Origin: Escherichia phage vB_EcoM-E33
DNA: 64,000 nt
Sequence record: OL780484.1
Strand: one strand, 5' to 3'
The notes beneath the pieces are model-generated. The model saw only the letters and a list, made by a program, of their open reading frames with translations. It searched no databases and was not told where the DNA came from. A program made the translations under genes and the position numbers. Within the stretch, counting starts at the first letter, position 1. Every line of letters begins with the position of its first letter. Below, piece by piece: positions 33,384 to 55,289 of this stretch.

Positions 33384-33413
33384 TATAAATACCTCCTATA
33401 CTCAGGAGGTATT
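33384..33413 (+). promoter_or_regulatory. late promoter TATAAATA plus SD-sequestering hairpin of gene e
   Basis: TATAAATA 33384-33391; atacctcct (33389-33397) pairs perfectly with aggaggtat (33404-33412), which contains the e gene SD. Confidence 0.7.
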
Positions 33414-33908
33414 ATGGATATTTTTGATATGTTACGTCAAGACGAAGGTCTTGATTTAAATCTTTATAAAGACACTGAAGGTTATTGGACTATTGGCATT
33501 GGCCAATTGATTACTAAGAACCCTTCTAAAGATGTTGCTCGTGCTGAACTTGATAAGCTTATGGGTCGAGTTTGTAATGGTCGTATTACTATGGCTGAAG
33601 CTGAACAACTCTTTAACCGATCGGTTGAAAATGCTCGTAGAGCTATTCTGCGTAATCCTAAATTGAAACCTGTTTATGATGTACTGGACGAAGTTCGTCG
33701 TTGTGCTTTAATTAACATGGTCTTCCAAATGGGTGAAGCAGGCGTAGCAGGGTTCACTAACTCTTTACGTATGCTCCAACAGAAACGTTGGAACGATGCG
33801 GCAGTTAACCTGGCTCAATCCCGTTGGTATAAACAAACTCCTAATCGTGCTAAGCGCGTGATTTCAACATTTAAAACAGGTACTTGGAAAGCATATGAAA
33901 ACTTATAA
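33414..33908 (+). CDS. e: endolysin (T4 lysozyme e)
   Basis: 164 aa; [30 protein letters not shown]...[31 protein letters not shown].. near-identical to T4 lysozyme; catalytic E11, D20, T26 present. Confidence 0.95.
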
Positions 33909-34293
33909 TGAATTTATCGCAGAGAATGTAATTCCTGCATCTAAAGAACTTTTGGCGATGTTTGAATCTGAAGAGTTCACTGAAGAACTGAATGAGAACC
34001 TGACCCAGGCCACTCCTCAGGTTATTCGCGTTCGTAATGCCCTTCAGACAGGCATGCAGGCTCGTGTATCTAAGACTATGAAGCTGGCATTCACCACTTC
34101 TAAAAATGAAGACTATGGTGATGGTATTGCAATGAACACTGGGCAGTATTATGTTGAGTGGAATGGTGAAACCGGTACTGCTAAGATTCGCCAAACGAGA
34201 GCAGCGGGTGGCAAAATGTTGGACCTTAAACTGAACGTTAAAGAGAAAGACGTCGCGGCTTTGTTCAAGAATTGGATGAAGACTTACAAATAA
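33895..34293 (+). CDS. internal-protein-like protein with capsid-targeting leader
   Basis: N-terminus [11 protein letters not shown] (identical EFIAE site to the T4 leader); start overlaps the e stop; 132 aa. Confidence 0.7.
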
Positions 34294-34322
34294 GTTTACA
34301 TCTCCTGTAGTCATGATACTAT
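34294..34322 (+). promoter_or_regulatory. early promoter inside stem-loop
   Basis: GTTTAC 34294-34299, 17 nt, TACTAT 34317-34322; arms atctcctgtag / ctacaggagat, the latter containing the denV SD. Confidence 0.6.
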
Positions 34323-34349
34323 AGACCTATCAACTACAGGAGATTAAAA

Positions 34350-34766
34350 ATGACTCGTATCAACCTTACCTTAGTATCTGAATTGGCTGACCAACACTTA
34401 ATGGCTGAATATCGTGAATTACCACGTGTTTTCGGTGCAGTTCGTAAGCATGTTGCTAATGGTAAACGTGTCCGTGATTTCAAAATCAGTCCTACTTTTA
34501 TCCTTGGCACAGGCCATGTTACATTCTTTTACGATAAGCTTGAATTTTTACGTAAGCGACAAATTGAGCTTATAGCCGAATGTTTAAAACGTGGTTTTAA
34601 TATCAAGGATACTACTGTCCAGGACATTAGTGACATTCCTCAGGAATTCCGTGGTGACTATACTCCACACGAAGCTTCTATTGCTATATCTCAGGCCCGT
34701 TTGGACGAAAAAATTGCACAACGCTCTACCTGGTACAAACATTACGGCAAGGCTATTTACGCTTAA
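34350..34766 (+). CDS. denV: endonuclease V (pyrimidine dimer DNA glycosylase)
   Basis: 138 aa; [34 protein letters not shown]... essentially colinear with T4 DenV as recalled. Confidence 0.93.
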
Positions 34767-34808
34767 TTAAATCCGTGATAGAATACTTCTATCAACTTAA
34801 GGAATAAT

Positions 34809-35168
34809 ATGAAAACTTACCAACAATTTATTACTGAATCTACTCAGCGCATTAACGAAGCTATGTCTCCTGAACAATTGGCTAAGGCCAAAGAAGGGCT
34901 GAACCCATCTGAAGTTTTTAAAGTTACAGGTAAAGACTTTGCTTCCATGGCCACTAACCAGAGCTTGGCTAAAGAACTTAAATCTAAATCTAACTTCATT
35001 CATGCTACATGGAATGGTGATTCTCTTACTTCAATAAGTGTGTACAATAAAAAAGGTCTCCTTAAGAGTTCTTATGGCGCGGATGCCATCCGTGTTTCTA
35101 AATCAGATTGGCATAAAAACACTACTAAAGCAGAAAAACCTCATAACCCGGCACTAGACCATCTTTAA
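34809..35168 (+). CDS. internal-protein-like protein with capsid-targeting leader
   Basis: N-terminus MKTYQQFITEST; 119 aa. Confidence 0.7.
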   Translation: MKTYQQFITESTQRINEAMSPEQLAKAKEGLNPSEVFKVTGKDFASMATNQSLAKELKSKSNFIHATWNGDSLTSISVYNKKGLLKSSYGADAIRVSKSDWHKNTTKAEKPHNPALDHL

Positions 35169-35176
35169 GGCTTAAT

Positions 35177-35434
35177 ATGAAAACTTACCAAGAATTTATT
35201 ACAGAATCCACTTTAGTTTCTAAACGTTGGAATATGATTGTAAACGTTAAACCTTCCGGCACTGAAGTTTCTATGGCCGACCCTAATGATGACGAACTTG
35301 AGCACGCTTTTAGCTCTAAAGAAACTGACGAGAAAGTGGTTAAGCAACTGGTTGCTGATGCAGATCAACTTCGTAAAGTAGCAGATGTTGTTAAGCTGTT
35401 TACTAAGAAAGGTTTTAAACACGAAGAACGTTAA
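35177..35434 (+). CDS. internal-protein-like protein with capsid-targeting leader
   Basis: N-terminus MKTYQEFITEST; 85 aa. Confidence 0.7.
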   Translation: MKTYQEFITESTLVSKRWNMIVNVKPSGTEVSMADPNDDELEHAFSSKETDEKVVKQLVADADQLRKVADVVKLFTKKGFKHEER

Positions 35435-35584
35435 TTAGCATTTTTAAATGGGAGCAACCTGGACCTCACAATTCTGTGAGGGACTCCCGCCAACCTGTAA
35501 TAAGGTCGAGCCCAAGTGCGGTAATGGGTAAATGCAGAAAGGGACGAATTAATGTGCCAAGGAACGGCCCTCAAAGGAAATACT

Positions 35585-36112
35585 ATGAAATTTTTAACTC
35601 CCATTTATCTAACCTTAATGCACGCCTTCGCTGAACGCGCCATTGAACGTTTAGACTCAGACCAATATACCTGGTATGAACCTGCTTCAAGAATGCAAGA
35701 GTTTGGTACTCTTCGACTTGATGGCGGACGCCAAACAGGTAAAACAAGTGCCCTTGCTCAGTTCGCCGCTGATTGGGTTTCCAAGGGTAATGATGTGATT
35801 GTTATGTCGAGTTCTTCGCATCGCTCGCGAGAAATTTGTAATGTAATAAAACAGGTTTCTAAGGCACACCCACATCTCCAAGTCGAAGGTCCTGGTTTTG
35901 TTGTCTATGATACTGTGCGCAGTTTCCTTGATGAAGACAATTTCCATAAGTATCGTGGACTATCTGTTACTCGATTATTGATTATTATCGAAGAGCCAAT
36001 GCGCCTTCCAGCGATGGATAAGTTCTATGAAGCTTACCAGGTAATGATTAATAAATTTATGTGCCAAGGCGACAAGCCTTTGCCTCTGTTCTTTGTGATA
36101 GGAATGCAATGA
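35585..36112 (+). CDS. small P-loop NTPase
   Basis: Walker A GGRQTGKTS and Walker B-like LLIIIEEP; start ATG 35585 (SD aagga); alternative ATG 35552 (ORF track). Confidence 0.55.
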   Translation: MKFLTPIYLTLMHAFAERAIERLDSDQYTWYEPASRMQEFGTLRLDGGRQTGKTSALAQFAADWVSKGNDVIVMSSSSHRSREICNVIKQVSKAHPHLQVEGPGFVVYDTVRSFLDEDNFHKYRGLSVTRLLIIIEEPMRLPAMDKFYEAYQVMINKFMCQGDKPLPLFFVIGMQ

Positions 36113-36405
36113 TGACTGATGAAGAACTTTTTGAGTTCTGTTATTTCTCACGTAAGGTTCGAAGAGAGGACCTTACTGCAAATTTCGAATATGCTTATTT
36201 CTACCCATTGGAATATGTATTCATGTCAGGGCCCTTTAAGGGCTCTCGTTTTAGATGTCATGCTCCTAGTATCCGATTAATGAAACAGGTTCCTTACTTC
36301 ACTCTCGAGTTCATCTCAGGGCCTTGTAAGGGTATTATTACTCGTAGTCTCTTGACTTATGACCAAGAGATTCATATGATTTCTGACTGGAAAAAATATG
36401 TCTAA
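36109..36405 (+). CDS. hypothetical protein
   Basis: ATG 36109 overlaps the upstream stop; internal repeat MSGPFKG / ISGPCKG. Confidence 0.5.
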   Translation: MMTDEELFEFCYFSRKVRREDLTANFEYAYFYPLEYVFMSGPFKGSRFRCHAPSIRLMKQVPYFTLEFISGPCKGIITRSLLTYDQEIHMISDWKKYV

Positions 36406-36616
36406 ATTGACAATTGAAGGTTCTGAAGAAGCTCTGAAAAGATTTGTTGAATGGCTTAATGGACCAGGTGAACAAGACTTTCTGGAAGTCTGGGATGGCG
36501 GTCGGTGGAATGGTAAAGAAATGATTTACCCGACTACCTATATCTCCGTGCAAGGTTGGACTGAAGGCCTTCGTTTGGTAGAATATGATATCGCAACTGG
36601 CGAGGAAGTGAAATGA
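36398..36616 (+). CDS. hypothetical protein
   Basis: ATG overlaps the upstream stop; 72 aa. Confidence 0.5.
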   Translation: MSKLTIEGSEEALKRFVEWLNGPGEQDFLEVWDGGRWNGKEMIYPTTYISVQGWTEGLRLVEYDIATGEEVK

Positions 36617-36891
36617 TTGAAGATATCAAGGGTTATAAGCCGCATACCGACGATAAAATCGGTAAAGTAAACGCTATCAAAGATGCTGAAGTTCGTCTTG
36701 GGTTAATGTTTAAAGCTCTGGAAGAAGAACATGTTACTCATTATATGAACTTAGATACCGAAGAGGTTTCTGAACAAGAACTAGACCAGGCTCATGAACG
36801 CATCACCCAGATTCGTAATGCAATTGACCGTCTGAAAGAAGCAAGCATGTGGGCGTGTCGTTCCGTTTTCCAACCCGAGGAAAAATACTGA
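36613..36891 (+). CDS. hypothetical protein
   Basis: ATGA overlap; 92 aa. Confidence 0.5.
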   Translation: MIEDIKGYKPHTDDKIGKVNAIKDAEVRLGLMFKALEEEHVTHYMNLDTEEVSEQELDQAHERITQIRNAIDRLKEASMWACRSVFQPEEKY

Positions 36892-37100
36892 TGAAAATTG
36901 AAAGTTTACAAGATTTCCAGCGTATCATCGGTGAAGCCTGTACTGGCTACCACAAATACTTGCTTGACGACCAAATGGCTTGTCTCGAAGAAGGTGAAGT
37001 ACAGTATGCAGCCCAACGCCTTGAACAAGTGAAAGAGTTTTACCCTGTACTGGTAGAAATTTGTTCAGCTGCTGGAAAACTTACCCCATTCCAAGAATAA
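36891..37100 (+). CDS. hypothetical protein
   Basis: ATG 36891 overlaps the upstream stop (ATGA); ORF-track start 36849. Confidence 0.5.
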   Translation: MKIESLQDFQRIIGEACTGYHKYLLDDQMACLEEGEVQYAAQRLEQVKEFYPVLVEICSAAGKLTPFQE

Positions 37101-37104
37101 AGCA

Positions 37105-37133
37105 GTTTACATCTCCTGTAGACGTGGTACTAT
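37105..37133 (+). promoter_or_regulatory. early promoter inside stem-loop
   Basis: GTTTAC 37105-37110, 17 nt, TACTAT 37128-37133; same arms atctcctgtag / ctacaggagat as the 34294 cassette. Confidence 0.6.
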
Positions 37134-37161
37134 AGACCTATCAACTACAGGAGATTACAAA

Positions 37162-37620
37162 ATGTCAGAAATTAATTCAGAAGTATTCATCCGCCGCAAT
37201 AAATTACGTCGTCAGTTCGAAACCGAATTCCGTGAACTGAATACGTCCATCAAAAAAGCCGCCATCAAGAGCGGAGTCCCAGCCTTCTTTATTAAGTACT
37301 CTAATCACTTGTTGGACCGTGCTATCCAACGTGAAATCGACGAAAAATACGTTTTTGCTTTATTCAAGCAACTCCATAACCATGTTAAAGAAATTCATGA
37401 ATTTTTAATCCAGGAACCTCTACCTGATGTAGAATCCGAAATTGTCCCTGGTAAAGTGTATCGTCCATTGCGTCTCGAAATTACCGATAAAACCTTATGG
37501 CTAGGTATGACAGTAGACCGTAAACATCCTGATAAAGGATATTCCCTTAAATGTCGTATGGCATTTGTTAACTCTAAACGTTTAGAAGGTAAAACCAGCA
37601 CGAAAGTAATCTATCTTTAA
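37162..37620 (+). CDS. hypothetical protein
   Basis: SD aggag inside the hairpin 3' arm, then ATG; 152 aa. Confidence 0.55.
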   Translation: MSEINSEVFIRRNKLRRQFETEFRELNTSIKKAAIKSGVPAFFIKYSNHLLDRAIQREIDEKYVFALFKQLHNHVKEIHEFLIQEPLPDVESEIVPGKVYRPLRLEITDKTLWLGMTVDRKHPDKGYSLKCRMAFVNSKRLEGKTSTKVIYL

Positions 37621-46822: not shown

Positions 46823-46851
46823 GTTTACATCTCCAGTAGAAATGATACTAT
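46823..46851 (+). promoter_or_regulatory. early promoter inside stem-loop
   Basis: GTTTAC 46823-46828, 17 nt, TACTAT 46846-46851; arms ctccagtag / ctactggag, the latter containing the SD. Confidence 0.6.
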
Positions 46852-46877
46852 AGACCTATCAACTACTGGAGGTTAAC

Positions 46878-54093: not shown

Positions 54094-54122
54094 ATTTACT
54101 TCCTCTCCTCACGTGTTATAGT
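54094..54122 (+). promoter_or_regulatory. early promoter variant inside stem-loop
   Basis: -35 ATTTAC 54094-54099, -10 TATAGT 54117-54122; arms cctcacgtgtt / aacacatgagg, the latter overlapping SD gaggag. Confidence 0.5.
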
Positions 54123-54151
54123 CTATCCTATCAACACATGAGGAGAACATT

Positions 54152-55020: not shown

Positions 55021-55221
55021 ATGAATCCTGAATCTAAATTATCACAGCGAATTGCTGAAGCTCGTCGTCAGTTCTTTGAAAATATGATAGCCCAAGGTAT
55101 TGATGACGAAGTTTTTCTGAACTGGTTTTGGAACCACAAATATTCAAGTTGTTCAGGCGCTTTATTAATTTCAGCTGCATCTATGTACGAAGGCTGGAAA
55201 GGTGCAATGAGTCAAAAATAG
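55021..55221 (+). CDS. hypothetical protein
   Basis: 66 aa. Confidence 0.45.
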   Translation: MNPESKLSQRIAEARRQFFENMIAQGIDDEVFLNWFWNHKYSSCSGALLISAASMYEGWKGAMSQK

Positions 55222-55250
55222 TTTACAAACTCTTGGGACCAGAGTATAAT
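55221..55250 (+). promoter_or_regulatory. early promoter inside stem-loop
   Basis: GTTTAC 55221-55226 (overlaps the upstream stop), 18 nt, TATAAT 55245-55250; gggacca / tggtcc repeat flanks the -10. Confidence 0.6.
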
Positions 55251-55289
55251 GGTCCTACGGATTATAACTTTAAAACTGAGGAAATTATT

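Follow-up and report, generated by a model that had tools for sequence, protein, structure and literature searches.

Escherichia phage vB_EcoM-E33 (OL780484.1) carries, within the 64,000-nt stretch of DNA analyzed here (hereafter the window), two short promoter cassettes with identical inverted arms. One lies upstream of denV, encoding endonuclease V, a pyrimidine-dimer glycosylase, and the other upstream of regB, encoding an endoribonuclease that cuts GGAG in the Shine-Dalgarno (SD) sites of early mRNAs (Table 1). What do these arms do? The original prediction proposed that they could serve as regulatory hairpins and as recombination sites for the 2.8-kb block between them. We consider it probable, though well short of certain, that the repeats are T4-type early-promoter and translation-initiation cassettes, resembling the promoter-early stem-loop (PeSL) cassettes of T4-type phages (Arbiol, Comeau and Krisch 2010, PMC2839356; Comeau, Arbiol and Krisch 2014, PMC4122927), in which RNA started at the cassette's own promoter exposes the SD, RNA reading through from upstream masks it, and recombination is a by-product.

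Anatomy and folding of the two cassettes

The coordinates and sequences predicted for both cassettes proved exact. Arm 1 (ATCTCCTGTAG) and its reverse complement, arm 2 (CTACAGGAGAT), are the same upstream of denV and of regB. Counting both orientations, ATCTCCTGTAG occurs in exactly four exact copies in the window, and with up to one mismatch it is found at 8 sites, compared with 0.93 expected (0/100 shuffles reached 8). The arms sit in a longer direct repeat of 53 bp that runs from GTTTAC to GGAGATTA, ending at 34346 and 37157. The two copies are ~94% identical, and all three of their mismatches are located in the loop (34311 T/A, 34313 A/G, and 34316 A/G); an A/C difference follows just past the repeat, at 34347/37158. 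In cassette 1, position 34311 contributes a 12th stem pair.

Both cassettes have the form of a T4-type early promoter, in which 17 nt separate the -35 GTTTAC from an extended -10 (TGnTACTAT, 34314-34322 and 37125-37133), and a promoter scan scored both copies as promoter-like with the TG. Arm 1 lies within the promoter spacer, while arm 2 contains the SD, AGGAG, 5-6 nt ahead of the start codon. The predicted transcription start sites (~34324-34329 in cassette 1 and 37135-37140 in cassette 2) both fall downstream of arm 1 and inside the hairpin loop.

The predicted structure of the RNA depends on where transcription begins. Read-through RNA folded at -20.7 kcal/mol for cassette 1 and -19.2 kcal/mol for cassette 2 (z -4.7 and -3.4), with the SD inside an 11-12 bp stem, and 0/200 shuffles gave a fold as good. 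RNA from each cassette's own predicted start was unstructured (-1.6 and -1.4 kcal/mol, z +0.6). The predicted probability that the SD is unpaired was 0.00 in read-through RNA, compared with 0.53 (cassette 1) and 0.74 (cassette 2) in own-start RNA. As a positive control, the 10-bp hairpin with an embedded late promoter in the leader of gene e (lysozyme), which is established by experiment, was recovered ~900 bp upstream of cassette 1.

Read-through into the cassettes is to be expected, because a terminator scan found no terminator-like site at either of them, the upstream genes are co-directional, and the internal-protein-like gene that adjoins cassette 1 (33895-34293) has no promoter of its own, so that transcripts through this gene would read into cassette 1. 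No U-run follows arm 2, where the sequence is AUUAAAAAUG. Between the cassettes there are four terminator-like hairpins on the + strand, the strongest of which, at 36228-36246 (8 pairs, 5 of them G-C; AGGGCCCTTTAAGGGCTCT, followed by a weak T-run), might limit read-through into the regB cassette. The proposal of a regulatory hairpin is thus supported by computation, in that the SD is buried in read-through RNA only and, as described below, the arms show compensatory pairing and strand-asymmetric non-Watson-Crick pairs.

Under the mechanism we propose, host sigma-70 polymerase would start at the cassette promoter a few bases past the -10, within the hairpin loop. The resulting mRNA would lack arm 1, so that its SD would be free, leaving it translatable and also exposed to RegB. 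RNA from upstream promoters would hold both arms, and the 11-12 bp stem (~-20 kcal/mol) would bury AGGAG, so that denV and regB would be silent on read-through transcripts. Such masked copies would probably be RegB-resistant as well, because RegB acts on GGAG of early SDs (its own among them) when this is single-stranded, and structured sites are protected (PMC3014915; PMC1702504). We infer that the net effect would be production of DenV and RegB only from their own immediate-early mRNAs, in the short period during which their own promoters fire.

The genes driven by the two cassettes had been described as unrelated. In a regulatory sense they are not, since both are early genes and RegB is itself an RNase that cuts GGAG SD sites. 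The RegB target consensus is GGAGRAYARAA, and C at position 9 was never seen in efficiently cleaved T4 sites (Durand et al. 2006). Arm 2 resembles such a target in placing GGAG before an A-rich tract, both at denV (GGAGATTAAAA, 34340-34350) and at regB (GGAGATTACAA, 37150-37160), and differs from it at regB, where position 9 is C. This lineage may accordingly have weaker RegB autoregulation. In T4 the arrangement is reversed: it is denV that has the C at position 9 and is a poor RegB substrate.

Covariation of the stem and breakpoints among relatives

If the stem matters as a structure, different sequences should preserve it. From relatives, 84 distinct cassette copies were harvested, and 48 distinct arm combinations were compared. 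Five different fully complementary stems (TG:CA, AG:CT, AT:AT, TTCTCCTCATG, and TTCTCCTCTGG) share one register, and the alternative arm pairs found in other cassettes are ATCTCCAGTAG/CTACTGGAGGT (at 46823 in the window), ATCTCCATTAG/CTAATGGAGAT, TTCTCCTCATG/CATGAGGAGAA, and TTCTCCTCTGG/CCAGAGGAGAA. Pairing was bimodal, with at least 10 of the 11 positions paired in 9/48 arm combinations and at most 7 in all the others. Among controls, slid registers gave none with at least 9 paired positions, and permuted 3′ arms gave a mean of 2.2. In a formal count, 53.4% of positions were paired compared with 48.3 +/- 1.4 in shuffles, and the covariation score was 0.247 compared with 0.173, each value being matched by 0/500 shuffles.

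The non-Watson-Crick pairs indicate the strand involved. Inside 34 distinct stems there were 17 G.U and 2 A.C pairs, against 13 and 8 at flanking control positions under symmetric scoring; the excess of G.U over A.C points to sense RNA rather than a DNA palindrome. Moreover, the arms are invariant while the loops drift in 11 denV and regB cassettes, T4 included. T4 regB keeps this layout with different arms (TCCTCTTGAC/GTTAAGAGGA). Among the T4-like contigs of IMG/VR, a hairpin straddling the -10 is kept at regB with at least 5 arm versions, found in at least 5 lineages. At denV, SD-masking stems are kept with at least 8 arm versions in two layouts, the 5′ arm always lying upstream of the predicted start. 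The 3′ arm coincides exactly with the SD in 22/32 distinct stems, sometimes with the AUG in addition. Judged from these comparisons of sequence, the stem looks to be under selection at the RNA level.

Relatives also differ at the cassettes. Homology breakpoints are located at 34293/4, 34306, 34323, 34347, and 37099. When window positions 33793-34793 were used as the query, more than half of the 60 matches listed had one of their ends inside the ~57-bp cassette, which makes up 5.7% of the query. In T4, VR5, dhaeg, CLB_P2, and others, matching sequence is confined to the interval between the cassette start and the denV stop codon, which the T4 denV homology spans exactly. The matches of AnYang, MX01, C6, and NC-G extend only up to 34306, within arm 1, those of vB_EcoM_005, fDHCT2, and LHE83 begin at 34347, just past arm 2, and those of JS10, CLB_P2, and UP19 at regB begin at 37099. 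At least four different arrangements are found upstream of denV. In QL01 (locus L041), WG01, and FB, two cassettes enclose an additional ipIII-like gene, and the corresponding window junction lies in a shared 13-mer, GTTTACATCTCCT. The segment 34839-35489 is absent from several relatives. Also, IME281, JS98, MX01, PSD2002, LHE83, and others lack the open reading frame (ORF) that directly precedes cassette 2; on the right, this indel stops 5 nt short of the cassette, and no cassette remnant was found on its left side. In T4, deletions of 0.7-6 kb between short homologies arise readily, and ipIII has been lost repeatedly in this way (PMC9391042).

Exchange within the cassettes has left possible traces as well. 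Two hybrid cassettes with broken stems (loci L003-L075) combine arm 1 ATCTCCATTAG with arm 2 CTACTGGAGG and arm 1 ATCTCCTGTAG with arm 2 CTTGGAGAA, and resemble products of crossing over inside the conserved TACTATAGACCTATCAA core. At regB, Dhakavirus has a cassette of the denV type, whereas in T4 and other lineages this gene has one of the TTTCTCCTCTT type, suggesting an old cassette replacement. Because the cassettes are repeated through the region, homologous crossover within them is possible; repeats of ~55 bp would let the efficient homologous recombination of the phage cross over there, giving rise to gene indels, module swaps, and cassette replacement over evolutionary time. Such recombination would be a by-product of the repeats, with no dedicated site-specific system. 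The breakpoints, the ipIII-like indel, and the hybrid cassettes thus support, in a general sense only, the suggestion that the arms are recombination sites; this support does not extend to the predicted excision between denV and regB.

That excision was searched for with junction queries in megablast, the deletion being represented by 33793-34323 joined to 37135-37620 and the circle or tandem by 36604-37134 joined to 34324-34793. Neither a deletion nor a circle/tandem junction was found in one place in any phage record (0/50,697), and the presence/absence polymorphism of the 2.8-kb block with ends at both repeats, which had been put forward as a check, was accordingly not seen. Excision of the whole denV-to-regB interval between the two copies is possible in principle and unseen in nature.

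The reading we prefer has this result against it, together with several others. The transcription start site was assumed from the position of the -10. The stem is present in only ~1/5 to 1/3 of cassettes with the same promoter core, so that gating would be gene-specific and is unnecessary for cassette function. In one regB lineage (loci L081-L083) the hairpin straddles the -10 and does not reach the SD, a hint that such hairpins have an additional or different role. Breakpoints at the cassettes are partly trivial, because modules would be joined in the intergenic space in any case, and a cassette takes up all of it. Furthermore, orthologous cassettes are more alike than the pair in the same genome, and there is consequently no sign of recent exchange between the two copies; concerted evolution was rejected, regB cassettes being 51-52/52 identical between phages compared with 49/52 to the denV cassette of the same genome.

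Known systems and rival explanations

The window cassettes fit the known PeSL and T-even cassettes and the known SD-masking hairpins, and in that respect they are real but largely ordinary. Their promoters, GTTTACA-N16/17-TGnTACTAT at 34294 and 37105, fit the T4/PST consensus TTTACW-N17-TAYWAT (PMC4122927). As in PeSLs, the stem-loop is contained within the promoter, with an 11-12 bp stem and the -10 in the loop, and the SD and start codon stand at the 3′ end of the cassette. The cassettes occur in many copies in the hyperplastic e/internal-protein/denV/regB region, next to small variable genes, and indel or replacement breakpoints between close relatives fall on them. The locus is, moreover, the internal-protein region in which such shuffling was first noted; T-even internal-protein loci carry analogous early-promoter elements, according to the citation of Repoila et al. 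1994 by the PeSL authors. The window cassettes differ from PeSLs in that their stems have no G-run/C-run and the two copies flagged here show no recent exchange. They differ further in that the SD itself forms the 3′ arm and both the -10 and the start site lie in the loop, from which an action on the translation of read-through RNA, rather than on termination, is predicted.

A second relevant class is known from T4 e, soc, 49, and I-TevI, where a hairpin with a proximal promoter embedded in it sequesters the SD (reviewed by Uzan and Miller 2010, PMC3014915). In the e class, the SD and/or AUG is held in a helix on long transcripts, while a promoter in the DNA of the 5′ arm or loop gives rise to short transcripts that lack the 5′ arm and are translated. 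The window cassettes are likewise predicted to bury the SD in RNA from upstream promoters and to produce own transcripts without the 5′ arm. In contrast, the promoters of the e class are late (gp55-dependent) and keep a late protein silent early, whereas those of the window denV and regB are early sigma-70 promoters. The inferred logic would thus be reversed, with translation only in the immediate-early burst.

Neither denV nor regB is in the hairpin list of Uzan and Miller 2010 (PMC3014915), and SD masking by an early promoter is not described in that review of T4 post-transcriptional control or in the PeSL papers, although denV or regB hairpins may have been mentioned earlier elsewhere. The less familiar aspect of the present locus is the widely covarying SD mask embedded in the early promoter at denV and regB. 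A broader view, less likely than not, is that T4-like early promoters commonly embed a 5′ arm that masks the downstream SD, making translation of selected early genes start-dependent and RegB-coupled in a portable module moved between genes by recombination and conserved family-wide at denV and regB.

An alternative explanation is that the stem-loop is a transcription terminator or attenuator, the role first ascribed to PeSL stem-loops; it would then shield each gene from transcription arriving from upstream and would not act on translation. Precedent exists: five stem-loop subclasses of PeSLs have been published, including one 'between -35 and -10' and one 'overlapping -10', and one PeSL stem-loop lowered lacZ expression as strongly as the rrnB T1 terminator (PMC2839356). 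In the regB hairpins of loci L081-L083, as in those of the window promoters at 26190, 26647, and 55221, the stem spans the -10 and leaves out the SD, and the denV loci of some jumbo phages have true terminator-promoter composites. Set against this are the lack of a U-run past arm 2 and of a terminator scan match at either cassette, a loop of 21-23 nt, which is long for an intrinsic terminator, and the frequent exact coincidence of the 3′ arm with the SD, which termination does not require. We regard termination as an unlikely function of these two stems.

A role at the DNA level appears more improbable still. The arms could form an operator for a dimeric phage protein, for example in early-promoter shut-off, or a cruciform or hairpin that triggers site-directed recombination and mini-circle excision. 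They are symmetric about the -10, the mechanism of T4 early-promoter shut-off is stated to be unknown (PMC2988021), and the PeSL authors, who detected mini-circles in RB49 and phi1, speculated that a recombination protein might bind the stem (PMC2839356). However, arm sequences vary by gene and lineage and yet stay complementary, which does not suit a single protein that recognizes one sequence; the excess of G.U, being strand-asymmetric, indicates sense RNA; and neither the deletion junction nor the circle junction was found in the phage records. Cruciform extrusion is also poor for an 11-bp stem with a 23-nt spacer.

Least probable of all, by a narrow measure, is that a cassette was recently duplicated or converted, leaving arms that are identical by descent alone and an inverted repeat with no selected function of its own, since the near-identity of the 53-bp copies and the denV-type look of the Dhakavirus regB cassette are offset by loops that drift around invariant arms, compensatory double changes in the same register, pairing kept with unrelated sequences at orthologous loci, and the 17 to 2 ratio of G.U to A.C.

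If start-dependent translation from these cassettes is real, it would explain how genes in a dense phage region with overlapping read-through RNAs can have individual time windows, which matters for a potentially toxic RNase and a DNA glycosylase. The PeSL-like stem-loop of T-even phages would also gain a concrete job in translation besides termination. Because promoter, translational insulation, and ribosome site are combined within ~55 bp, the cassettes would be safely swappable, favoring the shuffling of anti-defence cargo such as internal proteins and the Acb2-like sponge, and in phage engineering a cassette could serve as a compact, predictable insulating expression module. Current understanding is not overturned, and T4 denV carries the same cassette as the window denV.

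Gene layout and other cassettes

The window phage is a T4-type phage of the JS98/IME08/Bp7-like group (Dhakavirus), and its gene order is as in T4: e, internal-protein genes, denV, vs-type small genes, regB, vs.1, vs, and tk.4 (Table 1). A capsid-targeting leader, MKTY..FI.E, is found in three ORFs (33895, 34809, and 35177), placed on both sides of denV. The content originally listed for the block between the cassettes (two capsid-targeting-leader genes, a P-loop NTPase, and four small ORFs) was roughly right; the block also includes denV itself and has four to five small ORFs after the one with the Walker A motif. The ORF at 36613-36891 is presumably the counterpart of T4 Vs.4, an anti-CBASS cyclic-nucleotide sponge, and the block would therefore hold anti-defence cargo beside the internal-protein genes.

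Table 1. Coordinates of the cassettes, genes, and related elements in the window.
Feature	Position	Strand	Details
Gene e (lysozyme) leader	33385-33413	+	Late promoter TATAAATA (33385-92) overlaps 5′ arm AUACCUCCU; 3′ arm AGGAGGUAU masks SD and abuts AUG 33414
Internal-protein-like gene	33895-34293	+	Capsid-targeting leader; adjoins cassette 1 on upstream side; variable among relatives
Cassette 1, upstream of denV	34294-34349	+	-35 GTTTAC 34294-99; arm 1 34300-10; TG 34314-15; -10 TACTAT 34317-22; arm 2 34334-44; ATG 34350
denV	34350-34766	+	Pfam PF03013 Pyr_excise 1.2e-14; 91% DNA identity to T4 denV
Weaker early-type promoter before two internal-protein-like genes	34755 (region 34755-35434)	+	ATTTAC-N18-TAGAAT; SD ungated
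Internal-protein-like gene	34809-35168	+	Capsid-targeting leader MKTYQQFITE
Internal-protein-like gene	35177-35434	+	Capsid-targeting leader MKTYQEFITE
Vs.8-like 186-aa ORF	35552-36112	+	Walker A motif
vs-type small ORF	36398-36616	+	
Acb2/Vs.4-like 92-aa ORF	36613-36891	+	Pfam Acb2/Tad1 hairpin domain 1.3e-15
69-aa ORF directly before cassette 2	36891-37100	+	Indel among relatives
Cassette 2, upstream of regB	37105-37161	+	-35 GTTTAC 37105-10; arm 1 37111-21; TG 37125-26; -10 TACTAT 37128-33; arm 2 37145-55; ATG 37162
regB	37162-37620	+	Pfam PF10715 REGB_T4 6e-69; PSD9 annotation
Third cassette, before 174-aa ORF	46823-46877	+	Same register, compensatory arms ATCTCCAGTAG (46829-39) and CTACTGGAGGT (46863-73, one G.U)
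Fourth strongly gated cassette, before 60-aa ORF	54094-54151	+	Unrelated arms TCTCCTCACGTGT (54104-16) and ACACATGAGGAGA (54134-46)

The window contains 17 early-type cassettes in all, seven to eight of which share TGATACTATAGACCTATCAA. Strong stems are present in four of the 17 (34294, 37105, 46823, and 54094) and weak stems in two more. Searches of Pfam and PHROGs found no function for the other gated genes. The idea that the stem is a generic cassette feature was rejected, given these counts (4, or up to 6 with the weak ones, of 17) and its presence in 9/48 arm combinations.

Three further early-type promoters on the + strand (26190-26235, 26647-26690, and 55221-55265) have inverted repeats that straddle the -10 and exclude the SD, the same pattern as at the regB loci L081-L083. 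An example is ATGGGCTCAT..ATGAGCCCAT, with a GGGC/GCCC motif; motifs of this type have been linked to T4 deletions (Mosig 1998, as cited in Arbiol 2010). The same locus is arranged differently in jumbo phages of 345-378 kb (loci L122-L124 and L129), where a true composite of terminator and promoter precedes denV (denV at 601): a GC-rich hairpin includes the -35 TTGAC, and behind it come first a T-run and then TATAAT.

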